Position numbers and translations under genes: made by a program
Source: an uncultured Bacteroidota bacterium
GTDB lineage: Bacteria > Bacteroidota > Ignavibacteria > UBA10030 > UBA6906
NCBI GenBank assembly: GCA_963700635.1
Contig: CAVOYH010000004.1
Coordinates: forward strand, 64,001 to 128,000
DNA: 64,000 nucleotides
Reading direction: 5' to 3'
The notes under the pieces: generated by a model
Told to the model about the DNA's origin: nothing
Databases searched by the model: none
Seen by the model: the letters and a program-made list of their open reading frames with translations, nothing else
Part shown: piece by piece, positions 27,559 to 45,080 of the stretch
Numbering within the stretch: position 1 is the first letter of the stretch
Layout: each line of letters opens with the position of its first letter

Positions 27559-28293
27559 TCACGAATCGGCACGCTGCATGGGACCGGGCACATCCACGGA
27601 AAGTACTCCGTTGTGCAGGGTTGTCACACGATCGCAGAACGTATGCGCCGTGTGCTCATCGTGCGTGATAAAAAGGATCGAACATCCGTGTGTCTCCTGC
27701 AGGGATTTCACCAGCTGCAGAAGTTGTGCCGATGTCAGCACATCCAGCGCTGAGGTTGGTTCGTCCAGAATGAGAAGCCGTGGGGCAACCGAAAGCACCC
27801 TTGCCAGGGCGACTCGTTGGCGTTGGCCTCCGCTGAGAGCGTGCGGCAAACGACCAAGACACCCAGCGGGCATTCCGACTGAAGTGATCAGCCGTTCGGC
27901 CGTGGCGGCATAGCTGGCGGCTGGTTGTCTCTCCGGGTGTGCGCGTATTCCCTCAACAAGCGACTCCATGACGGTCATCGTCGGATCCAGAGAGGCACTC
28001 CCGCCCTGGAAGAGCATCTGAATCCCTACTCCCACAGCATCGCGGTTCTTCGTCTCAGGAAAGATATTCACTCCGTCGAATGTGATCACTCCCGAGTCAG
28101 GTCTCAACAATCCGGCAATACACTTTGCAAGTGTCGATTTGCCGCTCCCGCTCTCACCGAGCAGCGCGAGTGAGGTCCCGGCGTCAAGAGTGAAGGACAC
28201 ACCATTCAGCACCGGTTTCTTTCCCGATCTGAGCCGTGATACCGAGTCGAGGCGCAGCGAACAGAACAGACTCTTCACTTCCAGTAAAAGCAT
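27559..28293 (-). CDS. Oligopeptide/dipeptide ABC ATP-binding protein (OppF/DppF-like)
   Basis: GESGSGKS, LSGGQRQRVALAR, LDEPTSALD. Confidence 0.9.
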   Translation of the reverse strand: MLLLEVKSLFCSLRLDSVSRLRSGKKPVLNGVSFTLDAGTSLALLGESGSGKSTLAKCIAGLLRPDSGVITFDGVNIFPETKNRDAVGVGIQMLFQGGSASLDPTMTVMESLVEGIRAHPERQPAASYAATAERLITSVGMPAGCLGRLPHALSGGQRQRVALARVLSVAPRLLILDEPTSALDVLTSAQLLQLVKSLQETHGCSILFITHDEHTAHTFCDRVTTLHNGVLSVDVPGPMQRADS

Positions 28294-29237
28294 CGTATCT
28301 CTCTTCCATCGGATGTCTGCTCCAGTTCTGGTTCGGACTGATAACATCTCTCTTGCACTTCCGGACAATATGCACAGAACCTGCATCCATTCCCGGAAGC
28401 GGTTCTGGCGGCGCCGGGTGACGCCGGGCCCGTCGTCATCATCCCCTTCACCGGTCCTGGCCGTGCCCGGGCCAGCAGTTGGGAATAGGGATGCAACTGC
28501 CTCTTGAAGAAGGCCTCACAGGATGCTGACTCGACGATCCTTCCTGCGTACAGCACCAGAATCGTATCTCCCATGCGCCGCGCTACATCGATATCATGCG
28601 TGATCAACATCAACGACATACCCGTGTTGCGCTGGATCGACATCATCACATCGAGCAGCGAATCTCGCAATGAACTGTCAACGGCACTCGTAGGTTCATC
28701 GGCAACAAGCAGGGATGGAGATGGCAGAATTGCCATGGCAATGCAGACTCTCTGAGCCATCCCTATGCTCAACTGATGCGGGAAGAGGTTCAGCACGACA
28801 TCCGCGTCGAGACCCACCGAGCGGAGCGTCTCATGGCAGGCGGAGTCGTTCCCTGATGCCAGGCCACCTGAGAGCCGCAATTGAGTCCGGATATCGGCCA
28901 GCGGATTAAGTGACTGCAGAGGTTCCTGAAACACGTACCGGATCTTGTTCTGGCGAATGGGCGCGAGTTCGGCTTGATCAAGGGACAGCAACTCCCGTCC
29001 TTCAAAAATCACCGAGCCTTTAACGCTCATCGGGCGGGTTCGTGGGAACAACTTTGTGATCGAGCGGCTAAGAATGGTTTTGCCGCTGCCGCTTTCGCCG
29101 AGAAGGACCAGGACTTCATTGCGACAGAGAGTCAAGGAAACGTCGTGGATGATGTCTGTCGGGTCAGTCCGCGAGAAAACTGAAACGCAGAGATCCCGTA
29201 CGGTCAGAAGATGGGATGGTTCGATTGCAGGGTTCAT
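28275..29237 (-). CDS. Oligopeptide/dipeptide ABC ATP-binding protein (OppD/DppD-like)
   Basis: GESGSGKT, PHQLSIGMAQRV, ADEPTSA, HPY, and the Cys-rich C-terminal GCRF...C motif. Confidence 0.9.
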   Translation of the reverse strand: MNPAIEPSHLLTVRDLCVSVFSRTDPTDIIHDVSLTLCRNEVLVLLGESGSGKTILSRSITKLFPRTRPMSVKGSVIFEGRELLSLDQAELAPIRQNKIRYVFQEPLQSLNPLADIRTQLRLSGGLASGNDSACHETLRSVGLDADVVLNLFPHQLSIGMAQRVCIAMAILPSPSLLVADEPTSAVDSSLRDSLLDVMMSIQRNTGMSLMLITHDIDVARRMGDTILVLYAGRIVESASCEAFFKRQLHPYSQLLARARPGPVKGMMTTGPASPGAARTASGNGCRFCAYCPEVQERCYQSEPELEQTSDGREIRCFYWK

Positions 29238-29324
29238 GTGTCCGCAGTGAAACTACCGAAAATGTATTTCAAACTCAAACAGGTTTGCCGCGGGGGTCTT
29301 GTCCCCCCCCCTCCGCGGATTCTA

Positions 29325-29353
29325 TTGACAAACCCGCAAATCATGGGTATATT
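29325..29353 (+). promoter_or_regulatory. Sigma70-type promoter for oppA and probably the downstream signalling genes
   Basis: TTGACA-17 bp-TATATT, about 44 bp upstream of the ATG at 29397. Confidence 0.75.
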
Positions 29354-29396
29354 CACCAGCACAATTGCCTTCCGGAGACGCTGGAGAACCGTGCCG

Positions 29397-31100
29397 ATGA
29401 AAACACGAATTGTACTGCCGTGTATCGTGGCGATTACGCTGGCGTGCTGTGGCACACCGGAAGAGCGCACGTCGAGCCGGGCACAGCGCTCCATGGTTGT
29501 TGTTGCCATTGAAGGTGACATTGACACCTTTAATCCGCTCTTTGCCGAGGACATTACCGCAGGAGAAATCAATGACCTCTTCTTTCCCTCCCTGGTAAGG
29601 TCTGATTTCGACCCCGATTCGGGTCTACTGCGCTACTCACCCATGCTGGCTCGGTCGTGGGAGTACAGCAACCAACAGAGAGACATTACCTTTCATCTGC
29701 TTTCCAACGCCCGATGGGCTGATGGCACGCCCGTCACGGCCAGAGATGTTCAGCTCACGTTTGAGTTGTATGGCGATCCGGATGTTGCGAGCATCCGGCA
29801 GGCCTCCGTCGACAACCTGAGGCGGACCGACGGAAGTCTCGATATTACGAAGAGCGTCGTTCAGAAAGATGATACTACCGTCGTGTTTCACTTTTCCAGG
29901 GCATACTCCGGACAACTCTTCGATGCCGGACTTCCCATCCTGCCGGCTCACCTTCTGGAGAAGATACCCCGGAAAGATCTTCGATCAGCCCCCTTCAATC
30001 GATCTCCCGTCGGGTGCGGGCCATACGCGCTTGCCGCATGGACGCCATTGCAGGAGACAATCCTCGAGCCGAATCCGCACTCCGTTGTTCCGTATCCCGG
30101 GAAGCTTTCACGCCTGGTATTCCGCGTCATTCCTGATTACCGGACCCGGTTGGCCCAGCTTGGTTCGGGAGAAGTTGACCTGGTAGGGGGCGTAAGGCCG
30201 GACGATGCCGACAGGCTCTTGAGAGAGGTACCGTCAGTCAAAATAATCTCGATACCCGGCCGGGATTACGACTTTCTTGGCTGGAACAACGTGGATCCCG
30301 AGGCCTATGGGAAATCGAGAGGCAAAACCATACAACCGCACAGGCTCTTCGGAAAAAGTAACGTCCGGCGGGCACTCACCATGGCGGTGAATCGGGAGGA
30401 GTTTGTTGATGCCTATCTCGGCTCTCATGGCCGTGTTGCATTCGGCGGAGTTTCTCCGCTTTTCACATGGGCCTACAATGATCGCCTGCACCCGTTACCG
30501 TTTGACCCTCAACAGGCACGAGTGTTGTTGGAAAGGGAAGGGTGGAAGGATACCGACCACGATGGTGTGCTCGACAACAAGGGAGTTCGGTTTTCATTCG
30601 TACTCAAACTCCCTGCAGGCAACCAGCTCAGGAATGTCGTTGCCGCGGCAGTGCAGCAGCAGCTGAAAAACGTGAAGATCGAAATGAAGATTGAGCAGAT
30701 TGAACGGGGAACGTTCTGGCAGGAAGTCGCGACCAGAAAGTATGACGCATGGATGGCAGGCTTTAGCGTGCCCCTCCAGATGCAGCTGGATGAACTCTGG
30801 GGTTCCGATCTTGCAAAATATCCTTTTAATCTGACCGGATTCCAGAACGTGCGCGTGGACGAAATCCTCGCAACGGCGAGAACCCTTACGTCTGAGACCG
30901 ACGGCGCCGCCCTGTGGAAGGAATTTCAAGAGATCGTTCACGAAGAACAACCATGTACATTTCTCTTCTGGATCAATAACATCGTGGCGGTTAACGATCG
31001 TGTTCACGGCACACACATCGGCGTTCTTGGCACTGCTCATCACGCCTGGGAATGGCATGTGAATACCGGTGGAACGGTTGCCTCAGAAAACGTACGCTAA
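29397..31100 (+). CDS. Peptide ABC substrate-binding lipoprotein (SBP family 5, OppA/DppA-like)
   Basis: Lipobox-like TLACC; LARSWE, ARWADGTPVTARDV, PVGCGPY and VRRALTMAVNR motifs. Confidence 0.9.
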   Translation: MKTRIVLPCIVAITLACCGTPEERTSSRAQRSMVVVAIEGDIDTFNPLFAEDITAGEINDLFFPSLVRSDFDPDSGLLRYSPMLARSWEYSNQQRDITFHLLSNARWADGTPVTARDVQLTFELYGDPDVASIRQASVDNLRRTDGSLDITKSVVQKDDTTVVFHFSRAYSGQLFDAGLPILPAHLLEKIPRKDLRSAPFNRSPVGCGPYALAAWTPLQETILEPNPHSVVPYPGKLSRLVFRVIPDYRTRLAQLGSGEVDLVGGVRPDDADRLLREVPSVKIISIPGRDYDFLGWNNVDPEAYGKSRGKTIQPHRLFGKSNVRRALTMAVNREEFVDAYLGSHGRVAFGGVSPLFTWAYNDRLHPLPFDPQQARVLLEREGWKDTDHDGVLDNKGVRFSFVLKLPAGNQLRNVVAAAVQQQLKNVKIEMKIEQIERGTFWQEVATRKYDAWMAGFSVPLQMQLDELWGSDLAKYPFNLTGFQNVRVDEILATARTLTSETDGAALWKEFQEIVHEEQPCTFLFWINNIVAVNDRVHGTHIGVLGTAHHAWEWHVNTGGTVASENVR

Positions 31101-31159
31101 CAAGTGTGCGCGCATCAAAAGGTCTGGAACAACATGTTCTATAGCCCCCGGATGGTGAC

Positions 31160-32130
31160 GTGTCCCTCCTGATGTTCCTGATCCGGCGACTGCTCCAAGC
31201 GATACCTACGCTGTTTGGGCTGGTGACCCTCGTGTTCTTCCTCTCGCGGCTCCTGCCGGGAGATCCTCGACTCTCTACCTGTATCCGGGAATTCCGCCTG
31301 CGGTCGCCGAACAGCTTAGCGCTCAGTTCGGTTTCAACCGTCCTGTCCTGGACCAGTACGTGTCCTGGCTCTCTTCCGTTCTCACCGGTGAACTGGGGCA
31401 TTCCTTTGCTCACAATGCACCCGTGACGGAGGTCATACTGCGGGTGTTTCCGAATACGGTGCTCCTCGGCGGAACGGCACTGGTTCTGGAATGTATTCTT
31501 GCGGTTCTTCTGGCGGCGATCGCGGTGCGGGAGGTGGGATCACGGATGGACAGATCCGTTTCGACGCTTACCCTTGTTGTGTACTCACTCCCATCTTTCT
31601 GGGTTGGCATAGTGTTGTTGTGGATATTCTCATACTCCCTGGGGGTGTTTCCTTCATCACAGATGTACTCCATCGGAGCAGAAGATCTCGATGGGACGGA
31701 AGCATTGATCGATCTGCTGCGGCACCTGGCGCTCCCCGCGTTTACGGTCGCGATCCCGGGTGCTGCGGCCATCACCCGGTATCTCCGGACGAACATCACG
31801 GAGACCCTGGGAGAGGATTATGTTGTTGCGGCGACAGGCATGGGGCTGTCGAAAGCCAGGGTGTTTCGATCCTATGTCCTGCCGAATTCCATCGGACCGG
31901 CGGTTTCGTTGCTGGGCATCGAAGTGGGCGTGCTCCTGACAGGCGTACTGGTTACCGAAACTCTCTTTGCATGGCCCGGAATGGGAAGGATTGCAGTCAT
32001 GGCAATATTTGCCCGGGACTACCCGCTGATTCTCGGTTGCACGCTTCTTGGAGGAATCGTCGTGGTAGCGGCGAATATCCTCTCCGACGTCCTCCGCGCC
32101 TGGATTGATCCGCGCATCAGGATCACATAA
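31160..32130 (+). CDS. Peptide ABC permease (OppB/DppB-like); apparent frameshift at ~31266
   Basis: FLIRRLLQAIPTL...LLPGDP N-terminus joins in a shifted frame to YLYPGIPPAVAEQL...QYVSW...ETLFAWPGMG...DPRI. Confidence 0.85.
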
Positions 32131-32136
32131 CTGCTC

Positions 32137-33420
32137 ATGAAAAGAATCCCCGTCATCCTTGCGAGTCTTTTCTTCGTGGCAGTCAGCGTGCTGCACTTTC
32201 GGCTGATTTCCGCGAGTCTCACTTCCCTTGCGTCATGGTGCGTGCTGGTGGTAAGCCATCCCGGCGCGTTCGCGAGCTATTGGGTCCCACCACTCCTGGA
32301 GTACTGGCTGGCCGGTGTGGCGTGGATAGGGGTGGGCTTCGGGGGCTTCCTGCATGTGATCCGGATTGGTAAACAACGGGATCACTCCAGGTCTGAAGCG
32401 GACTCACACAGGTCGGCACGGGGACAGTGGTCGCGGCGCGTTATCGGGCTCGTCATATTTGTCGCCCTGACGTCACCCTTTCTCACCCCTATCGGTCCAA
32501 ATGTACAGGGAAATCTCGTTACAACCCGGCTACAACCGCCCCTGTCAATGGGTTACGTGCGGGAGTATCTTGAGGAGGATGACACAAGCTCTGGATCCAC
32601 TGATCGTCTACATCTGGTATTCAAACGAGCAGCCAACTATCTGCTTAATCGGACAACGCTGGTGGGCGGAAGCGCGGACAGGCTCCCGTCGGATTCCGGG
32701 AGTGGAGGTGTTGTCGTCCGTGAATATCCCACCACGTTCCTGTTCGGGACCGATGATAATGCGAGGGATGTCTTTAGCAGGGTGATCGCAGGTTCGCGAG
32801 TGTCGCTTGCCGTGGGCATGAGCGCTGCGCTCGGCGCATTGCTCATCGGTCTAGCGGTGGGACTCCCGGCGGGCCTGTCCCGCGGCACTGCCGGCATTGT
32901 CCTTATGCGGATCACGGATGTGTTCCTTGCAATTCCGAGCCTGTTTCTTGTCATGGGAGGACTTGCCTTTGTTGGTGAGTCCATCACAACGATTATTCTG
33001 GTCCTTGCGGCGACGGGATGGATGGGAATTGCAAGAGTCGTGCGGGGAGAAGTTCTCTCTCTGCGCGACAGAGAATTTGTTCTGGCTGCAAAGATGTTGC
33101 GCGTGTCGAATTGGACGGTCATGGTACGGCATCTCTTGCCCAATCTCCGGCCTGTGATACTCACCGCCGCCGTACTGCAGTTTGCCAATGCGGTGCTGGG
33201 GGAAGCGGCGCTTGGTTTTCTCGGACTCGGTGTTCAACCACCTACGCCGACGTGGGGGAATATGATGGGGGAGGCGACGGGATATCTCGGCCTGGCATGG
33301 TGGGTGGGCGTGTTCCCCGGGGTTGTCCTGGCAACAGTCATCGTCTCTGCCCATTCGCTTGGTGAACGCACAACCATCACGGCGGATGTCGAAAGAACGG
33401 TCAAACACTCCCCACCATGA
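32137..33420 (+). CDS. Peptide ABC permease (OppC/DppC-like) with an extended N-terminus
   Basis: LFGTDDNARDVFSRV, ARVVRGEVLSLRDREFVLAA and FLGLGVQPPTPTWG motifs. Confidence 0.9.
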   Translation: MKRIPVILASLFFVAVSVLHFRLISASLTSLASWCVLVVSHPGAFASYWVPPLLEYWLAGVAWIGVGFGGFLHVIRIGKQRDHSRSEADSHRSARGQWSRRVIGLVIFVALTSPFLTPIGPNVQGNLVTTRLQPPLSMGYVREYLEEDDTSSGSTDRLHLVFKRAANYLLNRTTLVGGSADRLPSDSGSGGVVVREYPTTFLFGTDDNARDVFSRVIAGSRVSLAVGMSAALGALLIGLAVGLPAGLSRGTAGIVLMRITDVFLAIPSLFLVMGGLAFVGESITTIILVLAATGWMGIARVVRGEVLSLRDREFVLAAKMLRVSNWTVMVRHLLPNLRPVILTAAVLQFANAVLGEAALGFLGLGVQPPTPTWGNMMGEATGYLGLAWWVGVFPGVVLATVIVSAHSLGERTTITADVERTVKHSPP

Positions 33421-36400: not shown

Positions 36401-37124
36401 GCAACACTATTATGAAATGCACGATAGTCTGGGGATAGTTGAGACGCTGCTCCAGCTCGCTCAGGTTCATCTTGTCCTGGGTGATGGTGTATCCGCAAGC
36501 GCGATTCTTGGAGAAGCAGAGGCTCTGGTGAAGAGCAAGAATCTAGAGAGCTTTCGGGCTCACATGCTCTTCGTGCGTGGGATGTCTCTGATGCTTCTGG
36601 GGAACCATGATGCAGCCCGGAGTGCGTTCATGGACGCAGAGGAGCGTATGCAGGAGAGCGGGGACATCGCGCAGAGGTTATTGCTCGCGGTGCGCATGGC
36701 CGAATGTGACCATCATAGGGGCGAAGTCGATTCAGCGGTGGCCCTGGCCCGTCATGCGCTCGAGTTAGGGGAAACGCACACTCAACCCAACATCATCGCT
36801 GAGGCGTGCTTGCTCCTGGGAACGATTGCGAAGGCCTCTCCATCACGCGTTCAGGAAAAGGCGCTCCTGTTGTTCCGCACGGGGTTTGAGGCAATTGCGG
36901 AAGAACCGGTAACTGAGGTGACGTGGAAACTTGCGATGGCCCTTGGAGGTGAATTTCATGCACGCGGACAAAGAGAGAAAGCGAAGGGATTCCTGTCACA
37001 AGCGAAACTGGTGCTGCAGTTTTTTCTTTCACATTTTGCATCTTCTGAGCTCAGGAATCAATATCTTGCAGCAGGAAGCAAGGATGCGGTGATGAAAAAT
37101 CTTGATTCATTTTTGACTACGTAG
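33417..37124 (+). CDS. Ser/Thr protein kinase - STAND (AAA_16-like) ATPase - TPR protein
   Basis: Kinase motifs GEGGNA, AMK, HFDIKPDN, DFG, GTLEYTAPE, DLYSLG; FVGRETE, Walker A GPEGIGKT, Walker B VIVVDDVD; many TPR-like repeats; no TM seen. Confidence 0.9.
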   Translation: MMINHRYHIVNPLGEGGNAQVFLVEDTLERGQRSAMKVFHRQSLDARAELEHIWNEIAILATLHHPNLVHVFDFGVVRSSEEKSLLDRRFLTMEYIQGVSADAWCRTVPSGQDRATHLKHVLLQVLQVLAYVHRRGIIHFDIKPDNLLVISGGESGSGLPLVKLTDFGFSVHMGTAHELSLRGTLEYTAPELLRRDPFDHRVDLYSLGVTLYELMEGRCPFEEGNPVELIKKVLTTKPEFQQSLDPAYSLLLPLLKGLLHEDPSHRFESAGQAARFLLPEGGGLYTAGFDIISKPVFVGRETEKSRIGRALSALGTEHAGEPETAILMTGPEGIGKTALVSEVVRQARTADVPVVEVKHAQRHVPFSAARSLLSILKAEVLSRSARGPELTERFADVIDPRAEHGDGETGEFQTGWLLEREKTIESQARFINQASLLFPVVIVVDDVDVLDGESMEVLRTVHRDGTPGRLLLLLTAPRVSDLPFAASEIPLGELDAETVVAMSTSTISPPTVGEAIGLRLHLLYGGTPSILVEALYSAGKLLYGESLDEIADRSGLAEKVTLKLPRDLDQFLLKRYQSLDRGLQLTLDVLSCFSGSARLEVVEAVLPFQRQRTQAYLSLLEAHGLITSHDAGKRFAVRHTKLKALINSALQDARPATHLFIASTLEGIAGARSFDDLQELAYQYTQAGQSVEALLWLEAAGDEGTQLSAHQQAGQLYRRAMDLSRPADGVSVERLTVKLAESLFRGGAFRDAIELATHVLGTELLDATHTTVLHKIAGLAQSRLGEYREGKKHIETALETCGDARENVELTQELVGIDIALGSFLEAEQASIVQLDRAKSLGNQLSLAAIYTDLGIATFFQELYDRSIEYFRESMEIYISAKHHMHAVDAQMNIGNVMSAKGRIADAIECWSEALRQSQEYGTLNQQAQILNNIGIAHFKLKRFREARSFYNNAKTLFHRLDSKQGSAYILTNLGEVGFAEGQYEPALLMWKDALQHYYEMHDSLGIVETLLQLAQVHLVLGDGVSASAILGEAEALVKSKNLESFRAHMLFVRGMSLMLLGNHDAARSAFMDAEERMQESGDIAQRLLLAVRMAECDHHRGEVDSAVALARHALELGETHTQPNIIAEACLLLGTIAKASPSRVQEKALLLFRTGFEAIAEEPVTEVTWKLAMALGGEFHARGQREKAKGFLSQAKLVLQFFLSHFASSELRNQYLAAGSKDAVMKNLDSFLTT

Positions 37125-37138
37125 GGGATTCGGCCACC

Positions 37139-38572
37139 GTGGCTTCACGAAAAGATCGATTCGTCATTCTGCTCTCGGGTAGAAAAGAAATCATGGAACG
37201 CGTGCGGCGGTATGTCCGTTTGACCGACGCGATGCATCTTCAGTTTGTGTCCTCGCCAAGCTATCTGTCCGGAAGGGCCATTTTCAAAACGCCGGATCTT
37301 GTGCTGCTTGACGTCACAAAAGATACGGTCATTCTCCGGTCGGCAATCAGTGAGTTTGCGTCCCAGTTCCCGGATGTACCCATTCTGGCCATGACGCGGG
37401 CGGCCGACCACTCCTTCGCGGTGGAACTTGTGAAGCTGGGTGTGTCTGCATATTTTGTCGTCCCGGATGAGCAGCGAAAAATCATGGAACAGATCACATT
37501 ATTCCACAATGAATGGATCGCCAGGAGGGCAAAAAAGAAATTTGTGGATCTGCAGAAGGAGACATACGACTTCAGACATATTATCGGGACCTCACCGCTC
37601 CTGAAAGTCACCATGGAACGGGCTCAAAAAGTCATCATAAACAGCACCATGACGGTCCTGATCACCGGCGAAACCGGAACGGGAAAGGAACTTTTTGCCC
37701 GGGCGATTCACTACAACGGGAAAAACAAGAACAGCCCGTTCGTTGATATAGCCTGTACGGCACTTCCGGAGACCCTCCTCGAGTCTGAGCTGTTTGGCTA
37801 TGAGAAAGGCGCGTTTACCGACGCGAAGGAGAGGAAAATCGGTCTATTCGAACTGGCCGGTGACGGATCTATCTTTCTTGATGAAATCGGCGATATTTCC
37901 ATTGCGACACAATCAAAACTCCTGAAGGTGATCGAAGACCGCTCGATGAGAAGAGTCGGTGGCGTTCGGGATGTCCCGGTGCGGGCACGTATTATTGCGG
38001 CAACGAGCGCTGACCTTGATGCGAAGATGCGGGCGGGGGAGTTTCGAAAAGACCTGTACCACCGGCTCAAAATACTTCCTCTTGAATTGCCGCCGTTGAG
38101 GGACAGGAAGGATGACATACCGCTGCTTGTGAAGGAATTCCTTCGGACGTTCAACCAGGCGTACAAAAAGGAGATTAAGGGGCTGACTCCCCTCGCATTG
38201 CAGGCCCTTATGGAACATGAATGGGAGGGGAATGTCCGGGAACTCAAACATTGTATGGAACGCGCCGTCCTTCTGGAAGAACGGAGCTGGATTACGGAGC
38301 AGGATTTTGACTTCGCAATCGCGAAAGCACGCCCCACGAAGCGCACACTGATTGCCAACAGTCCCGAAAGCCTGCCTCCGAAAGAAGTCGATACGCTCAT
38401 GCTCCTGATCCCCCTTGACCACGCTTCATTACAGGAAGTGCAGAGAACGTGTGTCCTGAAGGTGCTGGACCATGTGGGGGGAAACAAGATGAAGGCGTCA
38501 AAAATTCTCAAAATTTCAAGGCCACGCCTCGACCGTATCCTCAAGGACGCCGACGACGACCCTGAAGAATGA
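37139..38572 (+). CDS. Sigma54-dependent enhancer-binding protein (receiver-like, AAA+, Fis-type HTH)
   Basis: GETGTGKE, ESELFGYEKGAFTDA, FLDEIG, FRKDLYHRL, WEGNVREL, and GGNKMKASKILKISR HTH. Confidence 0.92.
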   Translation: MASRKDRFVILLSGRKEIMERVRRYVRLTDAMHLQFVSSPSYLSGRAIFKTPDLVLLDVTKDTVILRSAISEFASQFPDVPILAMTRAADHSFAVELVKLGVSAYFVVPDEQRKIMEQITLFHNEWIARRAKKKFVDLQKETYDFRHIIGTSPLLKVTMERAQKVIINSTMTVLITGETGTGKELFARAIHYNGKNKNSPFVDIACTALPETLLESELFGYEKGAFTDAKERKIGLFELAGDGSIFLDEIGDISIATQSKLLKVIEDRSMRRVGGVRDVPVRARIIAATSADLDAKMRAGEFRKDLYHRLKILPLELPPLRDRKDDIPLLVKEFLRTFNQAYKKEIKGLTPLALQALMEHEWEGNVRELKHCMERAVLLEERSWITEQDFDFAIAKARPTKRTLIANSPESLPPKEVDTLMLLIPLDHASLQEVQRTCVLKVLDHVGGNKMKASKILKISRPRLDRILKDADDDPEE

Positions 38573-38602
38573 TGTAACGTCCTGGATGAGCGAGTGTAAC
38601 GT
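38573..38602 (+). promoter_or_regulatory. Candidate upstream activator (enhancer) sites
   Basis: TGTAACGT at 38573-38580 and 38595-38602, 22 bp apart and 125-155 bp upstream of the sigma54-like element. Confidence 0.5.
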
Positions 38603-38727
38603 TTTAGAGCATCACTTGACCTGCGTCACCTCATTCCCTGCCTCCCCCGAAACCACGAATTTTCATCCCGATCGCCGATCTGGCCCGGCATGCTCCATTT
38701 TGTACAATTCTCCACGATGACCTTTTG

Positions 38728-38742
38728 TGGCACAAAGGTTGA
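38728..38742 (+). promoter_or_regulatory. Sigma54 (-24/-12)-type promoter
   Basis: TGGCAC-AAAGG-TTGA versus consensus TGGCAC-N5-TTGC (one mismatch at -12); lies directly downstream of the sigma54 activator gene. Confidence 0.65.
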
Positions 38743-38920
38743 TCTCTTTACCAGCAGACGCAATCGTGAGACCATACGAAAGTCACTCTTGAGCGGAAAT
38801 CGGTATTCAGTCAAAGCGGAGGGCACAATGCAAGAAGAGGACCAACACATTATCATCAACAGATTCACGCGCTTCATCCAGGCTCTACACATCGATAGAA
38901 GTATCAGAAGGAGTAAAATC

Positions 38921-39520
38921 ATGAACTTTTCAACTGTGAAAGCGGGCTTGCTTATCGGCGCTCTGTTCGTCACCCTGTTGACGGGGTGCCGGAATGATGG
39001 TCCGGTGGGCGTGGAAAACGCCCCATCAGCCACCCAGGAGCCTGACTTCCTGAAGATGCCCAAAAACCTGTCACTCCAGAAAGTCCTTGAATCGTCGGCA
39101 CTGATAACTCCTGAGGATGGCGGACAACTCAAGCTGGAATTTAAGTATGACTACACCACCAGCACGGGAGAAGTAAAAGAGTTGGACGTCAAGATGAAGT
39201 TGAAGTTTCCCAAAGGCGCCGTCCAACATCCGCTTGTTGCCAGGTTACGCATTGACGATGAGGTCCTGAGATCGAATGTGGACATTACGTTCAACCCGCA
39301 CGGTTCCACCTTCCTCACGCCGGCCATTCTTGACGTGGACGTGAGCGGGATGGATGTGAACGGGATGAGTCCCGATTCTCAGGTGTGGCTGTATTATGAT
39401 GAGGATGGTACGTGGGTGAAGATGGTCGCCAAAAAGGTTGAATTCAAATTCAAAGGTGGCAAGATCAAGTGCGATCATGGCGAGCTGCCGCACTTTTCAC
39501 GGTATGCGTTCGGCCGGTAG
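38921..39520 (+). CDS. Lipoprotein with ZU5-like domain ending in HFS-RYAFGR
   Basis: AAGGAG RBS; lipobox LLTGC; ZU5-like motifs ITPEDGGQL, FPKGAV, FNPHGSTFLTPAIL; HFS at 39491-39499. Family assignment is by motif recognition only. Confidence 0.65.
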   Translation: MNFSTVKAGLLIGALFVTLLTGCRNDGPVGVENAPSATQEPDFLKMPKNLSLQKVLESSALITPEDGGQLKLEFKYDYTTSTGEVKELDVKMKLKFPKGAVQHPLVARLRIDDEVLRSNVDITFNPHGSTFLTPAILDVDVSGMDVNGMSPDSQVWLYYDEDGTWVKMVAKKVEFKFKGGKIKCDHGELPHFSRYAFGR

Positions 39521-39570
39521 GACCAACACATCAACCAATCACGGTGATTCGGTCTCACAACAGCGAAACA

Positions 39571-40818
39571 ATGAAAACAGAAACCGTCACAAAACAGATC
39601 CTCGGCATAGTCAGCGCTTATTGCGAGCCGAATGTGGTGACGGGTCTCGTAAAAGACCTGCGACGATCGGACGCGCTTGAGCATAGAATGTTGGCGGGAA
39701 AGAGCGGCGGCCACATACGTCGGAAGGACCGGGACCTCGTACTGGAGGAGCAGGGAAAACTGGATCGTTTGATTACGCTCTGTCAAGAACGGCTAAGAAT
39801 GGAGGACGTGTGTCAGGTGTTGCTGGGCATCGGGGACGTCTTCAAGGTTCACGGCGAGACACACCGGGCTGAGGAGCTGTACTCGATGGTTGTTGCGCAG
39901 GACGATCCACATCGGAAGAATGGGGTTGTCGCGGAAGCGTACCTGCGCCGTGGAGAAATATACTCCCGCAGAGCCCAGTGGAAACAATCCGCCTCCGACC
40001 TTGCCCGCAGCCGCGCGATTGTCTCAGAGTTGAACGATTTTGAGGCCCTTGGCCGGGTTGACAACATTCTTGGCACGAACCATGCGGAACAGGGGAAGAT
40101 CAATAAGGCCATAGAATTCTTCGAACGTGCCTTCAAGCAGTTCGAACACACCCGGCAGACACAGATGGCTGGCGTTGCGCTGATGAATCTCGGCATTACG
40201 TACAACATGATCGGTGAATACGACTCCGCCGTGACCTACTATACGCGGGCAAAATCCTATTTTGAGAACGTCGGCGATGTGAATCGGCTTTCGGAGGTGC
40301 ATCACAACACGGGAATGACGCATCTTTCCAGACGGATGTTCAAGGACGCAATCGGGGAGTTTAATACGAGTTACATGCTGTCGGCGTCGCTGCAGAATCT
40401 GTCCCTCATGGGACTGGCAAATCTGGGGAAAGCCCATGCGTATTATCATCTTCGCGACTTCCCCATGGCAGTAAAGCTGGTAAGCCAGGCGGTCGACTAC
40501 GCTACGAAATCGGGCGATCGATTGAGTCTCGCAGACGCCTATAAGGTAAAAGGGATGATCCATCGGGAAATGCAGAGTTATGATTCCGCTGCATCATACC
40601 TCCGGACAAGCGTTCGGATAAATACCGAACTCCACAATCAGTTGAACCTGGCGGAGTCATATTTTGAGATCGGCGTGCTGGAAGTGAAACGTCAGAACAC
40701 CGACGAGGCGTTACAGGCGTTTCAGAAGGCCCGCGCCGCGTTTAAGAAACTTGGCGCCCACAAGGATGTGAAAAAGACCATGGACCAGATAGTGGCTCTC
40801 GGAGGGACCAACGGATGA
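39571..40818 (+). CDS. Stand-alone cytoplasmic tetratricopeptide repeat protein
   Basis: About eight ~40-aa TPR units (e.g. ALMNLGITYNMIGEYDSAVTYY); no signal peptide; ATGA overlap with the histidine kinase gene. Confidence 0.85.
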   Translation: MKTETVTKQILGIVSAYCEPNVVTGLVKDLRRSDALEHRMLAGKSGGHIRRKDRDLVLEEQGKLDRLITLCQERLRMEDVCQVLLGIGDVFKVHGETHRAEELYSMVVAQDDPHRKNGVVAEAYLRRGEIYSRRAQWKQSASDLARSRAIVSELNDFEALGRVDNILGTNHAEQGKINKAIEFFERAFKQFEHTRQTQMAGVALMNLGITYNMIGEYDSAVTYYTRAKSYFENVGDVNRLSEVHHNTGMTHLSRRMFKDAIGEFNTSYMLSASLQNLSLMGLANLGKAHAYYHLRDFPMAVKLVSQAVDYATKSGDRLSLADAYKVKGMIHREMQSYDSAASYLRTSVRINTELHNQLNLAESYFEIGVLEVKRQNTDEALQAFQKARAAFKKLGAHKDVKKTMDQIVALGGTNG

Positions 40819-42113
40819 ACCTTCAGGATCTGCTGGGGCAGGAATCGACGGGGCTGGGGGACATTGCGGAAGGAAGAACTTCACCATCGCGGATGCGGGA
40901 TCTTGAAATGATCCTGAATGTTGTCCGCAAGATCAACACTTCCCTTGTCCTTTCGGATGTTCTGGAGCTGGTTCTCGACGAGGCAATCCGGATCACACGT
41001 GCAGAGCGTGGTTTTCTAATGCTCGCCGGCAATGACCGGGTTTTACAGTTTGTTGTCGGCCGTAATGCCGCGGGCGAGTCTATCCAGGCTGAAAGCTTTC
41101 AGGTGAGTTCGAGTGTGCTGGAAGACGTCTTCGCGACGGGTGAGTCTCTGTGCATCGAGAATGCGTTACACGACGAACGTTTTGAGCGAAGACAGAGCAT
41201 CATGAGTCTCGAGCTGCAGACGATCATCTGCAGCCCACTCCGGACGCCGGAGGACACGATCGGCGTTATCTACGTTGACAGCAAGTACATACAGGCCGTC
41301 GACAAGGCGGACACGCTCCATCTGTTTGAGATTCTGGCCGGTCAGGCGGCCATTGCCATCAAAAACGCGCGCCTGTATGAAGATCTCAAATCGACGTATG
41401 AGGACCTCAAACACGCCAATGCGCAGGTGATCAAGTCCGAACGCATGGCAATGAAAGGACAGATCGCCGGCGAAGTGAGCCACGAGCTCAAGAATATGAT
41501 CGCGATAGTGCTCCTGCAACTTGAAGTTCTCCGCTTGAAGCTTGACAGTTCCACGGTGGACGAGATCAGGTCGATGGTCGAGAAGACGGCAGACGGGGCG
41601 CGCAAGATCCGGGGATTTTCGGAAAGCCTGTTGACCAGGAATCGTTCCACCGACGCGGTGCTTCCCGTGAATCCCAATGATTTGTCACGAGACTTTTTTG
41701 ACTTTATCAAGGTGCTTCCCAAATTCAAGCACAACCAGCTTTCCCTGGTCCTCGGCGAAAACGTCCCACGGGTGCGGATGGATTTGGACCAGATTCAGCA
41801 GGTGCTTTTGAATCTTGTGAATAATGCCGTCGAGGCTTTTGCAGATGCCGCGATTGTTATCCAAACCGAATTCGATGCCGATTCAAACGTTGTCAGAATG
41901 TCCGTGCAGGATGACGGACCCGGCATCGATGACGCCATCAGAGATAAGCTCCTCAAGGAGATGGTCACCACAAAGATTGACGGCCATGGCTACGGGCTGC
42001 CCATCTGCCGTCAAATTATTGAACATCACGGCGGCACTATCCGAATCGACTCCTCAACGAATCGCGGTGCGAAGTTTGTCATGACATTCCCGGTGGACAC
42101 AGCAACGGGATAA
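40815..42113 (+). CDS. Cytoplasmic GAF-domain sensor histidine kinase
   Basis: GAF (AERGFLML...IICSPL...GVIYVDS...QAAIAIKNARLY); H-box SHELKN; N-box NLVNNA; G1 DDGPGI; G2 GHGYGL. Confidence 0.92.
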   Translation: MNLQDLLGQESTGLGDIAEGRTSPSRMRDLEMILNVVRKINTSLVLSDVLELVLDEAIRITRAERGFLMLAGNDRVLQFVVGRNAAGESIQAESFQVSSSVLEDVFATGESLCIENALHDERFERRQSIMSLELQTIICSPLRTPEDTIGVIYVDSKYIQAVDKADTLHLFEILAGQAAIAIKNARLYEDLKSTYEDLKHANAQVIKSERMAMKGQIAGEVSHELKNMIAIVLLQLEVLRLKLDSSTVDEIRSMVEKTADGARKIRGFSESLLTRNRSTDAVLPVNPNDLSRDFFDFIKVLPKFKHNQLSLVLGENVPRVRMDLDQIQQVLLNLVNNAVEAFADAAIVIQTEFDADSNVVRMSVQDDGPGIDDAIRDKLLKEMVTTKIDGHGYGLPICRQIIEHHGGTIRIDSSTNRGAKFVMTFPVDTATG

Positions 42114-42147
42114 CTATCCACGCACGGAAACGCGGCGAACAGGAAAA

Positions 42148-42981
42148 ATGACGACACCGATGAAGCAGACGCTACACGATCCGTTCTCTGATCAAAGCTC
42201 CGTCCAGATCGCGACACACACGGATATTGGAAACGTCCGGACCCTGAATGAAGACAGCATCGCCGTCGTGCCTTCCACCGATCCTGCACAGTCACGTATG
42301 GGGACAATGTTGATCGTGGCCGACGGTCTCGGTGGATACAATGCAGGAGACGTTGCGAGCAAGCTCGTCACGACGGCGTTGCCGGAACTGTATCGTTCTG
42401 GGACCGGCAAGGATTATGTATCCGACCTGATCAATGCCGTGCACGCGTGTAATGGGGTGGTGCGTAACGCCGCTGACATGTCAGAGCGTATGCGAGGAAT
42501 GGGAACAACGGTTGTGGCTGCGGTGCTTGTCGGACAGTACGTGATCTTTGCGCATGTGGGTGACAGCAGGGGATATTTGTTTCGGCGTGGAGAGCTGGTC
42601 CATCGAACCACGGACCATTCGTTACGAAACGTGGCTACGGGCCTGGTCGGAGGCGATGTGCCAGATCGTTTTTCGCATGTCCTCACCCGTGCGATCGGGC
42701 CGACGCCGGATCTTCTCGTTGACGTTACCGCCCATCGCCTCGAAAAAGACGACGTTGTCCTCTTGTGCTCCGACGGCTTGACAAATTGTGTGGGTGACGA
42801 CGTACTACGAACCATCGTGCTGGAGTATTCCCCTGCGGACGCGGCCCGGCTGCTGGTCAACATGGCGAATGATGAAGGCGGGGAGGACAACATCAGCGTG
42901 ATCGTCGCGCGAATCGAAAATCTCCCTGCACGCGACAGTGATGAAGCGTTGCTGGGAGTACAACCCTACCTCGTTCCCTAA
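42148..42981 (+). CDS. PP2C-family Ser/Thr phosphatase (Stp1/PrpC-like)
   Basis: TDIGNVRTLNED, VADGLGG, GMGTT, HVGDSRGY, LLCSDGL, GGEDNIS. Confidence 0.93.
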   Translation: MTTPMKQTLHDPFSDQSSVQIATHTDIGNVRTLNEDSIAVVPSTDPAQSRMGTMLIVADGLGGYNAGDVASKLVTTALPELYRSGTGKDYVSDLINAVHACNGVVRNAADMSERMRGMGTTVVAAVLVGQYVIFAHVGDSRGYLFRRGELVHRTTDHSLRNVATGLVGGDVPDRFSHVLTRAIGPTPDLLVDVTAHRLEKDDVVLLCSDGLTNCVGDDVLRTIVLEYSPADAARLLVNMANDEGGEDNISVIVARIENLPARDSDEALLGVQPYLVP

Positions 42982-43077
42982 GAATCCCCTCAGGAAACAT
43001 ATCGATGCCGCGTGACGTTCTCCCTCGAGGATCCGGCCGTGGGATTCAGAGCAATGGTCCTGCCGAGAGAACGTGAG

Positions 43078-43153
43078 TGGTAGCCTTAACGGGAATCGAA
43101 CCCGTATTTCGGCCTTGAGAGGGCCGCGTCCTAAACCGTTAGACGATAAGGCC
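43078..43153 (-). tRNA. tRNA-Glu (anticodon CTC), CCA encoded
   Basis: Reverse complement GGCCTTATCGTCTAACGGTTTAGGACGCGGCCCTCTCAAGGCCGAAATACGGGTTCGATTCCCGTTAAGGCTACCA folds as a cloverleaf. Confidence 0.95.
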
Positions 43154-43157
43154 AGGG

Positions 43158-43228
43158 CTGCCCCGCAAGGATTCGAACCTCGATAAACAGATCCAGAGTC
43201 TGCTGTCTTGCCGTTAGACGACGGGGCA
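43158..43228 (-). tRNA. tRNA-Gln (anticodon CTG)
   Basis: Reverse complement TGCCCCGTCGTCTAACGGCAAGACAGCAGACTCTGGATCTGTTTATCGAGGTTCGAATCCTTGCGGGGCAG folds as a cloverleaf; CCA not encoded. Confidence 0.93.
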
Positions 43229-43244
43229 ATCTATTTCGACCCTC

Positions 43245-43273
43245 AATCTACTAAAAGGAGTTCAGAATGTCAA
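43245..43273 (-). promoter_or_regulatory. Sigma70-type promoter of the tRNA-Gln/tRNA-Glu pair
   Basis: Minus strand TTGACA-17 bp-TAGATT just upstream of tRNA-Gln. Confidence 0.75.
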
Positions 43274-43289
43274 CTTTTGCGCCGTATTC

Positions 43290-43318
43290 TTGACTTTCCT
43301 CTCTAAATCTCCTATGTT
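43290..43318 (+). promoter_or_regulatory. Divergent sigma70-type promoter for the OmpA-family gene
   Basis: TTGACT-17 bp-TATGTT. Confidence 0.6.
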
Positions 43319-43360
43319 GATGCGTGTTCTTTCTGCCCATGACCGCCTGGAGGCGCAACG

Positions 43361-45051: not shown

Positions 45052-45080
45052 TTGACTTTCATCTCACCTTTTGGTACCTT
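45052..45080 (+). promoter_or_regulatory. Sigma70-type promoter for the psd operon
   Basis: TTGACT-17 bp-TACCTT with an extended TG. Confidence 0.55.

Follow-up and report, generated by a model that had tools for sequence, protein, structure and literature searches.

An Opp importer, cytoplasmic signalling proteins and a predicted self-cleaving lipoprotein in a conserved gene cluster of Ignavibacteria

A gene cluster of an uncultured Ignavibacteria bacterium (lineage UBA10030; UBA6906) brings together an oligopeptide (Opp) importer, a kinase-STAND-TPR protein, a sigma54 activator, a lipoprotein, a TPR protein, a GAF histidine kinase (HK) and a PP2C phosphatase (Table 1). It was found in a stretch of 64,000 nucleotides (the window; contig CAVOYH010000004.1, positions 64,001 to 128,000). 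In the class Ignavibacteria the cluster is conserved as an accessory signalling module. The initial annotation had the lipoprotein as an output only, whereas the evidence gathered here makes it the likely origin of the imported peptide. We propose, tentatively, that the lipoprotein cleaves itself, that Opp imports the peptide SRYAFGR, that cytoplasmic TPR proteins read it, and that the activator closes a positive loop. If true, this could be a new way for Ignavibacteria to make and sense a peptide signal.

Table 1. Features of the cluster, in window coordinates.
Feature	Coordinates	Strand	Evidence
oppF-like ABC ATPase	27559..28386	-	Pfam ABC_tran E 7e-34; NCBIfam NikE/OppF-like, below cut-offs
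oppD-like ABC ATPase, oligo_HPY C-terminal region	28275..29237	-	Pfam ABC_tran + oligo_HPY; NCBIfam OppD/DppD-like
sigma70-like hexamer pair TTGACA-17-TATATT, 5' of oppA	29325..29353	+	consensus match only
oppA, substrate-binding lipoprotein	29397..31100 (ORF from 29211)	+	Pfam SBP_bac_5 E 8e-69
oppB permease, frame broken	31160..32130 (ORF 31360-32130)	+	BPD_transp_1; tblastn
oppC permease, 427 aa, long N-terminal extension	32137..33420	+	Pfam BPD_transp_1
Ser/Thr kinase + STAND-type ATPase (AAA_16) + TPR array, 1235 aa	33417..37124	+	Pfam
sigma54 enhancer-binding protein, degenerate receiver-like N-terminus, Fis-type HTH	37139..38572	+	Pfam
two direct TGTAACG repeats, candidate activator binding site	38573..38601	+	genome-wide pair count
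-24/-12 sigma54-type promoter element TGGCACaaaggTTGA	38728..38742	+	motif scan, conservation
lipoprotein, 199 aa, ZU5-related domain	38921..39520 (long ORF from 38690)	+	lipobox, invariant HFS
codons of predicted released heptapeptide SRYAFGR (S193-R199)	39497..39517	+	tail conservation
stand-alone cytoplasmic TPR protein, 415 aa, candidate peptide receptor	39571..40818 (ORF from 39469)	+	Pfam TPR_12 + others
soluble GAF histidine kinase	40815..42113	+	Pfam GAF + HATPase_c
PP2C Ser/Thr phosphatase, accessory cluster member	42148..42981	+	Pfam PP2C

The named genes, their two ATGA overlaps (oppC/kinase at 33417-33420, TPR/HK at 40815-40818), the 14-nt gap from the kinase stop (37124) to the activator GTG (37139), and a -24/-12-like element are each where the initial annotation had put them. 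Gene content and positions thus stand; two starts and the intactness of oppB are revised. For the lipoprotein the most likely start is M78 of the long ORF (38921; MNFSTVKAGLLIGALFVTLLTGC with lipobox), and for the TPR gene it is 39571, so that the two genes do not overlap. The probable OppA start is 29397, which gives the protein a lipoprotein signal with lipobox, and oppF probably starts downstream of its ORF start. In this assembly oppB has a frameshift near 31262-31266 that puts its first 33 residues in another frame; tblastn with the OppB of locus L012 finds residues 7-33 in one frame and 32-320 in another, and oppB homologues are intact at about 322 aa. The frameshift was counted against a peptide signal. 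The claim that none of the signalling proteins has a visible transmembrane (TM) segment holds for the kinase, activator, TPR and HK proteins, in which no 19-residue window has a Kyte-Doolittle value >=1.6; the four carry neither signal peptide nor TM segment, as expected of cytoplasmic proteins, and TPR orthologues also have no signal peptide. PP2C is marginal, with 1.68 at residues 117-120, a stretch we read as a hydrophobic core segment, not a membrane helix.

The initial annotation had let its reading hang in part on whether opp and signalling genes lie together elsewhere, and in Ignavibacteria they do so in many genera, families and orders. Across the class, at 25-60% protein identity, one succession recurs: oppABC, kinase-STAND-TPR, sigma54 activator, lipoprotein, TPR and GAF-HK. 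Five relatives are collinear over all these genes (26-61% identity), as are many of 22 loci from genome contigs. Opp, kinase, HK, lipoprotein and TPR are still together in reordered loci (L043, L046, L047, L020 and L024), and in a second lineage lipoprotein genes are arrayed in runs of up to 11, with TPR, kinase, HK and oppA after them. Among 42 lipoprotein loci oppABC is present in 20 and the long kinase, the activator and the GAF-HK in 22 each. The TPR gene adjoins the lipoprotein gene in 29, two others being cut by a contig end and one having the genes 605 bp apart. Counted against a peptide signal are the 10 of 42 loci where no TPR gene is next to the lipoprotein gene, and the 22 of 42 with no opp gene within the flank, as well as the non-independence of related genomes as samples.

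The lipoprotein of the window has no Pfam match at E<=1, and the long ORF (38690-39520) is likewise without a Pfam family. It founds a large unannotated family with a ZU5-related domain (1400 representatives at E<=1e-3). Its C-terminus is H191-F192-S193 followed by RYAFGR. HFS is found in 149 of the top 150 family members, and across 117 family sequences no column but those of H, F and S is invariant; in some paralogues (L040, L056) GGA replaces HFS with the tail retained, which was counted against a peptide signal. PIDD and Nup98 use HFS for autocleavage; there it ends a ZU5-like domain, a beta strand comes next, and cleavage goes by a Ser-driven N-O acyl shift (PMC3210808). The earlier label "ZU5-like" is favoured by sequence profiles: PF00791 (ZU5) matches weakly in 12 of the 117 members, 3 of 30 Atlas neighbour clusters carry ZU5, and the family profile matches domains that Pfam calls ZU5 above cut-off (E 4e-14 and 7.5e-8) in 1200-1300-aa proteins of the same phylum with FG-GAP and a T9SS tail. 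The fold search does not bear the label out. The AF2 models are all-beta (pLDDT 86-89), and neither found a PDB match in Foldseek at E<=1e-3, which leaves the ZU5 fold unconfirmed.

We infer the steps of the proposed circuit as follows, from cleavage and release of the tail to its import, its binding and the question of which protein phosphorylates which. A sigma54 promoter would drive the operon starting with the 199-aa lipoprotein, whose ZU5-related domain ends in His-Phe-Ser plus six residues. After export, the Ser would attack the Phe-Ser bond, as in PIDD, Nup98 and NLRP1, freeing SRYAFGR outside the cytoplasm. The Opp importer of the cluster would take the peptide in via the genome's sole SBP_bac_5-family binding protein. 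The stand-alone TPR protein encoded beside the lipoprotein would bind it, as perhaps would the TPR array of the kinase-STAND protein. The activity of the sigma54 activator would be altered both by the GAF histidine kinase and by the Ser/Thr kinase, which PP2C, in loci that have it, would counteract. By binding the repeats upstream of the -24/-12 element, the activator would increase transcription of the lipoprotein operon, a positive feedback.

On the import side, oppA is the only SBP_bac_5 gene in this genome and is single-copy; its nearest NCBIfam is the Opp4A oligopeptide-binding protein (186 bits, below the cut-off of 650). Divergent from oppA, oppF is syntenic also in L012, L059, L060 and L066, and oppC orthologues are 393-452 aa long. 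The sigma70-like pair before oppA is the best of 12 matches (11 of 12 consensus positions), and such pairs are not in excess (12 observed vs 9.3 +/- 2.9 in shuffles). Inside the class Ignavibacteria the OppA orthologue tracks the lipoprotein: a hand count of same-class rows gives 21 genomes with both, three with the lipoprotein alone (two weak) and five with OppA alone. In a search of 41 relatives, orthologous OppA occurs in 10, adjoining the kinase wherever the contig permits; the remaining SBP_bac_5 matches are distant paralogues, and no OppA orthologue was found in relatives without the module. The nearly complete genome G416 has the lipoprotein and no OppA match, which was counted against a peptide signal.

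The -24/-12 element (38728-38742) has one mismatch, at the -12 C. Within the window alone one-mismatch matches are not above chance (4 vs 4.15 expected). The element is kept in the same place at related loci, and 27 of 59 lipoprotein genes have TGGCA[CT]-N5-T[TC]GN upstream (expected: 0.023 per segment), which accounts for 27 of all 50 matches across 1.43 Mb. The element claimed for the lipoprotein block is present and also conserved before lipoprotein genes elsewhere; rpoN is encoded in this genome. The TGTAACG repeats, 22 bp apart, form one of only two such pairs in the 4.2-Mb genome, the other falling within a coding ORF, and related loci have lineage-specific paired repeats at the matching position.

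The activator matches Sigma54_activat (E 2.5e-62), HTH_8 and, below its cut-off, Response_reg (E 4e-4). Its sigma54-contact loop reads GAFTDA, a point counted against a peptide signal together with the degenerate receiver. The receiver retains D58 in 11 of 14 sequences and is missing the acidic pair and the conserved Lys, which makes the classical His-to-Asp relay into the activator, part of the earlier interpretation, doubtful. That interpretation is also weakened by several lineages that retain Opp, kinase, HK, lipoprotein and TPR and have no activator. The HK itself has H223 in SHELKN and the N, G1 and G2 boxes invariant, with AtoS and ZraS, below cut-off, as its nearest NCBIfam families. 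The kinase-STAND protein comprises Pkinase (7-268), AAA_16 (297-472) and TPR (about 650-1080), and the kinase motifs AMK, HFDIKPDN, DFG and APE are there; it has a weak TPR_MalT match, and AfsR is among the NCBIfam and PDB matches. In the PDB the TPR profile matches, among others, RapF (E 2e-12), a similarity generic to TPRs. PP2C is Stp1/IreP-like (198 bits vs a cut-off of 230). An HMM search finds it in just 4 of 42 loci and tblastn adds L037, so that it is accessory, which weakens its supposed role as the reset. In sum, the earlier interpretation is partly supported: it gains from the conserved synteny, the sigma54 promoter and the ZU5 profile, and loses on the receiver relay, PP2C and the constancy of the activator.

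The tail after the predicted cleavage site is constrained more strongly than the domain body. Counted from the Ser, it is 7-11 aa long in 143 of the 149 relatives with HFS. Locus L073 has six paralogues whose bodies are 22-53% identical and each of which ends in SRYAIGAE; tails are likewise identical in 4/4 paralogues of L081 and 2/2 of L076. Both observations, and the near-constant pairing of lipoprotein and cytoplasmic TPR genes, arrays included, would be left unexplained if the lipoprotein were an output only. Opp would then bring in peptides from the environment, be they food or foreign signals, these or other cytoplasmic cues would be read by the kinases and TPR proteins, the activator would induce an envelope lipoprotein, and HFS cleavage would serve its own maturation alone. 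We hold this to be rather unlikely, despite several facts that speak for it. Opp systems are general peptide importers, and in another family of the phylum, where the lipoprotein is absent, about 40%-identical OppA homologues occur in 87/87 genomes, a count also held against a peptide signal. The post-HF motif seems generic to ZU5 domains: larger ZU5 proteins also show S-x-Y/F-G after HF (HFSKYGV in L071, HFSGFGAG in L069), so that the tail conservation is partly intrinsic to the domain, which was counted against a peptide signal as well. Lone lipoprotein genes with sigma54 motifs and no TPR or Opp nearby also exist (L041, L050, L057).

Whether the tail would leave the body is a separate matter. 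As far as the text drawn on from PMC8081665 and 10.1101/2020.08.14.246132 goes, cleaved ZU5/FIIND fragments stay non-covalently associated until the N-terminal part is removed, so the lipoprotein tail might not leave; in the AF2 models it is placed with confidence as the terminal strand, which pairs with the strand before it. The lipoprotein might then be a sensor of damage or attack, its self-cleaved tail staying docked as the last strand until the body is unfolded or digested (e.g., by foreign proteases or envelope damage), whereupon the Opp-imported tail would activate the STAND kinase as a danger signal. A reader that is a STAND ATPase fused to a kinase would suit such a role, as would bodies that diverge fast with tails fixed. 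We judge it improbable, since defence-system models match single domains only and the cluster has no evident effector gene, its sole visible output being the operon itself. That there is no single system, just a housekeeping Opp operon beside unrelated regulators, is highly improbable and already contradicted by synteny, for although a sole SBP_bac_5 gene could equally mean a general peptide importer, linkage is kept at 25-60% identity across families, orders and gene-order shuffles, the OppA orthologue keeps to relatives with the module among those searched, and oppC overlaps the kinase gene by ATGA.

Parts of the cluster resemble known systems. MalT, AfsR and PknK-type kinases are STAND regulators with TPR sensor arms, and the kinase protein shares their order of AAA_16 ATPase and TPR array; it differs in having a Ser/Thr kinase at its N-terminus as the effector, and in the translational coupling of its gene to that of an Opp permease. 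As in NtrB/NtrC-type pairs (AtoS/AtoC, ZraS/ZraR), the HK core is nearest AtoS and ZraS and the activator aligns to AtoC, NtrC and ZraR from about residue 50 on, all scores of both proteins being below the family cut-offs; unlike in those pairs, the receiver is without acidic pair and Lys, and the HK is soluble with a GAF domain.

The lipoprotein shares a domain superfamily with the bacterial ZU5 of polymorphic toxins and large surface proteins (Zhang et al., 2012, PMC3482391). There ZU5 processes a large secreted protein, whereas the ZU5-related domain of the lipoprotein stands on its own, free of toxin and adhesion modules, and its links are with regulators and an importer. With the ZU5/FIIND/Nup98 proteins (PIDD, NLRP1, CARD8, Nup98-Nup96) it has in common the invariant H-F-S that ends a beta-rich domain, the beta strand after it, and a sequence-profile link to PF00791; Foldseek against the PDB retrieved no ZU5 or Nup98 structure with the lipoprotein models. 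In those proteins it is a large C-terminal domain that is released or held; in the lipoprotein family only 7-11 residues come after the site. The lipoprotein also differs from them in that it is predicted to be exported and lipid-anchored.

The RRNPP systems of Firmicutes (Rap/Phr, NprR/NprX, PlcR/PapR, Rgg/SHP) are like the cluster in that a signal-source gene adjoins a cytoplasmic TPR gene, the peptide is imported by Opp (proposed here), and cassettes are multiplied into arrays. In RRNPP the source is a small propeptide cut by other proteases; in the cluster it would be a 199-aa lipoprotein with a predicted autocleavage domain of its own. The cluster TPR protein, unlike those of RRNPP, is without HTH, and the proposed output goes via kinases and a sigma54 activator. 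A survey of RRNPP analysed Firmicutes only, according to the portion of it cited here (PMC10075063); the host of the cluster is a diderm of the FCB group.

The region from 27559 to 42981 holds eleven genes by Pfam search (see the table). The opp set is complete: a binding protein with an SBP_bac_5 domain (oppA), two permeases (oppB and oppC) and two ATPases (oppD and oppF) were all found by Pfam, with oppA, oppB and oppC on the plus strand and divergent from oppF and oppD. The activator gene is followed by an ORF without a Pfam family (the lipoprotein gene), then by the genes of a TPR protein, a GAF histidine kinase (GAF-HK) and a PP2C phosphatase. With three details corrected, the genes and junctions of the initial annotation stood: oppC overlaps the kinase gene, and the TPR gene the HK gene, by ATGA, and a GTG start places the activator directly behind the kinase. 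The claim that the kinase, the activator, the TPR protein and the HK have no membrane-spanning hydrophobic stretch also held. The signal-sequence-bearing exported proteins identified within the cluster are OppA and the lipoprotein only.

Features of the opp-lipoprotein cluster and its flanks (window coordinates; empty cells, not given)
Feature	Position	Strand	Remarks
T9SS sorting-domain proteins, left flank	22199-24736 and 26460-27506		two proteins, just left of cluster
oppF	27559-28386	minus	ABC ATPase (Pfam)
oppD	28275-29237	minus	ABC ATPase (Pfam)
oppA	start probably 29397	plus	binding protein; predicted lipoprotein signal
oppB	31160-31426 and 31360-32130	plus	permease, in two pieces; one-base change near 31262-31266
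oppC	32137-33420	plus	permease, 427 aa
oppC/kinase overlap	33417-33420		ATGA
kinase-STAND-TPR		plus	1235 aa, 5' of activator; Pkinase + AAA_16 + TPR
sigma54 activator	37139-38572		GTG start, 14 nt past kinase stop; weak receiver match
-24/-12 element	38728-38742	plus	TGGCACaaaggTTGA
lipoprotein	38921-39520	plus	199 residues; start corrected (MNFSTVKAGLLIGALFVTLLTGC)
TPR protein	start at 39571		start corrected
TPR/HK overlap	40815-40818		ATGA
right flank	43361-46556		orf43361 (small ORF), OmpA with TSP3 repeats, Psd, PssA

The oppB frame is broken in the window, and its homologues are unbroken at about 322 aa. The frameshift could come from the assembly, or it could be a sign that the importer is decaying in this organism. 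Genes are split in related loci from metagenome-assembled genomes (MAGs) too (the activator in L026 and L029; oppC, kinase and PP2C in L037), so that assembly errors are possible. OppC begins with a hydrophobic extension of about 190 residues, which its orthologues (393-452 aa) share; the protein is longer than the NCBIfam OppC/NikC models that it matches (236-341 positions). Scans for terminators and sigma70 promoters gave match counts at chance level.

The initial annotation had read the opp genes and the signalling genes as one candidate circuit, and the two sets do recur together in related loci, with their order mostly kept. A first search of 41 related genomes found the lipoprotein in seven and in none of the five congeners. 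Around these matches the order oppABC, kinase, activator, lipoprotein, TPR, HK was repeated at 26-61% protein identity, with PP2C following HK in one locus. A pattern scan of 185,579 species genomes gave 22 loci, most of them with the same gene order; their labels are mostly of Ignavibacteria type, several read Bacteroidota or Bacteroidetes only, and there is one each from Chitinophagaceae and Terriglobia. A profile search over 401 genomes of the phylum placed the lipoprotein in 29, with a concentration in the window's class, and 20 further loci were fetched from these matches. Genes were then counted in the 42 loci that hold the lipoprotein gene, using our own HMMs built from the first locus set. 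The TPR gene adjoins the lipoprotein gene in 29 of them (two more are cut by the contig end, and in one the distance is 605 bp); oppABC was found in 20, the long kinase, the activator and GAF-HK in 22 each, and PP2C in four.

Gene order is not rigid. One locus (L043) reads oppFD, kinase, HK, lipoprotein, TPR, oppABC; two others (L046 and L047) are permuted further, and in an Ignavibacterium album MAG (L020) oppABC is followed directly by lipoprotein and TPR. Two loci (L048 and L054) are without the TPR gene. That the linkage withstands both divergence and rearrangement argues for a common function. The constant core is the lipoprotein and the TPR protein, usually with Opp, the kinase and HK, while the activator and PP2C are variable. 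Very probably, in our judgment, the cluster works as a single conserved unit, in which the importer is dedicated and sigma54 drives the lipoprotein operon.

The genes of the right flank are kept in two congeners that have no cluster (L088 and L089). In this the cluster is like an accessory island, and its right border falls in the stretch 42981-43361. The left flank is not collinear, so the island borders stay provisional. One of the two T9SS proteins of the left flank combines a GDSL lipase domain with several HYDIN/ASH-type Ig domains, and proteins with T9SS tails are also found near several lone lipoprotein genes (L016, L049 and L051).

How closely is the importer tied to the rest? The SBP_bac_5 gene of the cluster is the only one in its genome. 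Among the 41 relatives, 14 have an SBP_bac_5 match above the Pfam cut-off and ten have an OppA orthologue; none was found in the remaining 31, which include the five congeners. Wherever the contig is long enough, the close OppA orthologues (>700 bits with our own HMM) lie beside the kinase and the activator; the other matches are distant paralogues (34-125 bits) in different contexts. Paralogues of this kind in L063, L064 and L068 are directly beside histidine kinases of 623-799 aa, which suggests binding-protein-dependent sensing unrelated to the cluster. Three of the relatives with a close OppA orthologue (G015, G017 and G020) have a lipoprotein that the first search had missed, a long variant (314-344 aa) with SHFSRYAF[GA]R at its end. 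In the window's own genome and those of the same family, order and class, OppA and the lipoprotein occur together in 21 genomes, the lipoprotein alone in three (two of them weak) and OppA alone in five; these are related genomes and not independent samples, the number of same-class genomes being about 120 as estimated from the family order in the tally. One nearly complete genome (G416) has the lipoprotein and no OppA match. About half of the 42 lipoprotein loci have no opp gene within 10 kb, and an OppA orthologue was found elsewhere in the genome in nine of the ten genomes checked. It should be noted that OppA homologues of about 40% identity are present, without the lipoprotein, in 87 of 87 genomes of another family of the phylum, so the transporter type is not exclusive to the system. 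The nearest NCBIfam model of OppA is the Opp4A oligopeptide-binding protein, below the equivalog cut-off, and peptides are thus a predicted substrate class.

The -24/-12 element reported ahead of the lipoprotein block is present, and in the window alone it does not rise above chance: four one-mismatch matches were found against 4.15 expected, and its -12 part reads TTGA, not TTGC. The case for it comes from the related loci. The pattern TGGCA[CT]-N5-T[TC]GN occurs between the activator and the lipoprotein gene in all seven loci first examined. A sigma54-type motif was found at 27 of 59 lipoprotein genes (650 nt around the start, sense strand) against an expectation of 0.023 per segment, and these 27 make up more than half of all 50 matches in 1.43 Mb. 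Many of the lipoprotein genes that lack the motif come second or later in a tandem array, and lone lipoprotein genes without a nearby activator often have it. Sigma54 control of the lipoprotein operon is thus well supported as a prediction from these motifs.

Besides a single rpoN, the genome carries about 18 strong activator genes, and by its position the activator of the cluster would be the driver of the lipoprotein operon. Two TGTAACG repeats, 22 bp apart, stand just 3' of the activator stop, and related loci have their own paired repeats at the same position. The genome contains one other such pair, which falls in a coding ORF and has no -24/-12 motif closer than 350 nt; we rejected it as an activator target and attribute it to chance. 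The activator itself has the expected Sigma54_activat (E 2.5e-62), AAA_lid_14 and HTH_8 domains (Pfam). Its sigma54-contact loop reads GAFTDA in five of five aligned orthologues, the usual loop being GAFTGA. The receiver is degenerate. Its Response_reg score is 20.9 bits (cut-off 30.2), C/S-G stands in place of the acidic pair and a hydrophobic residue in place of the Lys, the Thr/Ser is mostly Ala, and Asp58 is kept in 11 of 14. The initial annotation had proposed a relay through both His and Ser/Thr phosphorylation. Since the receiver is without the acidic pair and the Lys, the first arm, a classical phosphotransfer from GAF-HK into the activator, is doubtful. For the Ser/Thr arm, every catalytic motif is present in the kinase and the metal-binding motifs are present in PP2C, but PP2C is rare among the loci.

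In the kinase-STAND-TPR protein, AAA_16 (E 4e-16) covers residues 297-472, and TPR_12 and other TPR families lie at about 650-1080, together with a weak TPR_MalT match. The separate TPR protein is a TPR array with no export signal and no HTH by Pfam. Its resemblance to the TPR arm of the kinase is generic repeat similarity only, at 22-26% identity. Similar repeats occur in LGN/Pins, kinesin light chain, AfsR and RapF, which are peptide-binding TPR proteins; this similarity is generic too and proves nothing on the ligand.

An exhaustive profile search brought the lipoprotein family to 1400 cluster representatives at E<=1e-3, of which 661 pass <=1e-10 and 149 pass <=1e-30; their length is mostly about 200 aa. 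Where they have a name it is hypothetical protein, and no precomputed Pfam domain is attached to any of them. The family is marked by its end: HFS is present in 149 of the best 150 relatives, the stretch from its Ser to the C-terminus is 7-11 residues long in 143 of these 149, and H191, F192 and S193 are the sole invariant columns of a 117-member alignment. AlphaFold models are confident (pLDDT 86.3 and 88.7) and all-beta, with HFS at a turn before the short last strand. PIDD and Nup98 cleave themselves at HFS, and CARD8 and NLRP1 at SFS; in this chemistry an N-O acyl shift lets the Ser attack the bond before it (D'Osualdo et al., 2011; PMC3210808). The lipoprotein family likewise has its HFS at the C-terminal end of the domain, before a beta strand.

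The probable kinship to ZU5 domains comes from sequence matches. The window lipoprotein has no Pfam family at E<=1, and 12 of the 117 aligned members match ZU5 (PF00791) weakly (best E 7.9e-4), more than match any other family. Three of the 30 nearest Atlas clusters carry ZU5. The family profile also matches domains of two FG-GAP/T9SS proteins of 1306 and 1222 aa (E 4e-14 and 7.5e-8); Pfam calls these regions ZU5 (23.7 and 27.2 bits; cut-off 21), which makes the link a transitive one. One of the two contains SHFSGFG, and the other has no HFS. Proteins of this build (1222-1306 aa; FG-GAP repeats, ZU5 and a T9SS sorting tail) come from other Bacteroidota (L069 and L070). There is also a lipoprotein of 540 aa in which NHFSKYGV is followed by about 390 more residues. 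A ZU5/Nup98-like beta-sandwich was not recovered by fold search, neither model finding a PDB structure at E<=1e-3, and against PDB sequences the family profile gave signal-peptide/lipobox matches only. We therefore call the domain ZU5-related by sequence, its fold being unconfirmed. The lipoprotein would form a new branch within the ZU5 superfamily, one with a very short tail. We found no description of the family in the literature, and it may be among the supplementary lists of bacterial ZU5 proteins that accompany PMC3482391.

The invariant HFS suggests that selection maintains cleavage; in that case the sole products would be the lipoprotein body and a short peptide, in the window SRYAFGR. 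Opp systems take up peptides of the 7-11-residue size range. Tail conservation is, to judge from the sequences, partly intrinsic to ZU5 domains. More can be learned from a second lipoprotein subfamily that forms arrays of 4 to 11 genes on metagenome contigs (L073, L076 and L081), where two tail classes, SRYAIGAE and SRYA[IVL]x[IVW]SR, alternate. The SRYAIGAE tail is identical in six of six, four of four and two of two genes on the three contigs, on domain bodies that are 22-53% identical. Identical tails on drifting bodies mean that residues beyond the generic S-x-Y-G/A part are fixed. Contig L073 continues beyond the array with TPR, kinase, HK and oppA. Some array members are of 426-701 aa with extra N-terminal parts. 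Among within-genome paralogues of Ignavibacteria the tails differ mainly in the last one to three residues, and each paralogue group stands beside its own TPR genes (L031 and L038-L040). In one genome (G428; L040 and L056), some paralogues have GGA for HFS and keep an RYGFTR tail, in tandem with HFS-bearing copies; these GGA copies would be non-cleavable.

These features can be joined in a loop. The lipoprotein would cleave off its own tail, a candidate peptide signal; the Opp of the cluster would import the freed tail, the cytoplasmic TPR protein would read it, and the activator would act as the sigma54 switch. We consider this loop of self-cleaved tail, Opp, TPR and activator the best explanation, and hold it tentatively. 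Release of the tail is not guaranteed, since in known ZU5/FIIND proteins the fragments remain together after cleavage (PMC8081665; 10.1101/2020.08.14.246132). A different use of the same parts is conceivable and in our judgment unlikely: the exported, already self-cleaved lipoprotein would be a bait, from which a foreign protease or envelope damage frees the docked heptapeptide. Just as improbable is its downstream part, in which the dedicated Opp imports the heptapeptide and the STAND kinase is switched on, so that the cell senses an attack on its surface through its own decoy. The whole would be a bacterial counterpart of the 'functional degradation' of NLRP1, an analogy to which we give equally little weight. 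Fast-diverging bodies, fixed tails and arrays of up to 11 copies would suit diverse baits with one common signal. A known defence system was rejected, as PADLOC matches are at the domain level only (kinase and AAA+).

If the loop of self-cleaved tail and importer is true, Ignavibacteria (free-living diderms) and at least one metagenome-only lineage have their own import-type peptide signalling. There would be a new route of making a signal, in which a lipoprotein cuts its own tail by the chemistry with which animal cell-death and inflammasome proteins cleave themselves. A function would be assigned to at least 1400 unannotated protein clusters, and a role to bacterial ZU5 domains that stand alone. 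The set of parts would be compact (self-releasing peptide, importer, TPR reader and sigma54 switch) and testable in E. coli. Even without the peptide idea, the cluster is a strongly conserved, undescribed regulatory module. The initial annotation knew of no described system with such a composition, and our literature search agrees: it turned up no paper that brings ZU5, lipoprotein, Opp and sigma54 together, and none on peptide signalling in Ignavibacteria.

Parts of the cluster resemble known systems. Its regulator pair is closest to the NtrB/NtrC type, the GAF-HK core being nearest AtoS/ZraS and the activator nearest AtoC/NtrC; the activator shares the AAA+ sigma54 domain and the HTH with the NtrC family but not a phosphorylatable receiver. 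Like STAND NTPases with a TPR sensor, the cluster kinase has an AAA_16-type ATPase and then a TPR array. The bacterial ZU5 members known to date serve in the processing of large toxins and surface proteins (PMC3482391). What sets the lipoprotein family apart within the superfamily is that nothing but a tail of 7-11 residues follows the predicted cleavage site.

In presumed working, the closest module is the import-type peptide signalling of the RRNPP systems of Firmicutes. Such signalling is documented for Gram-positive Firmicutes and their mobile elements, and a large survey covered only those (PMC10075063). The cluster is not a member of RRNPP. Instead of a small secreted propeptide gene by the receptor, the neighbour of the TPR gene is the gene of a 199-aa lipoprotein. 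RRNPP receptors usually have an HTH or another effector, whereas the TPR protein of the cluster has no DNA-binding domain by Pfam. In RRNPP the signal is re-imported by Opp; in the cluster, where such a step is predicted, what is observed is genomic linkage to Opp and co-occurrence with it. Finally, the host of the cluster is a diderm, and the source of its signal would be a putative self-cleaving lipoprotein.
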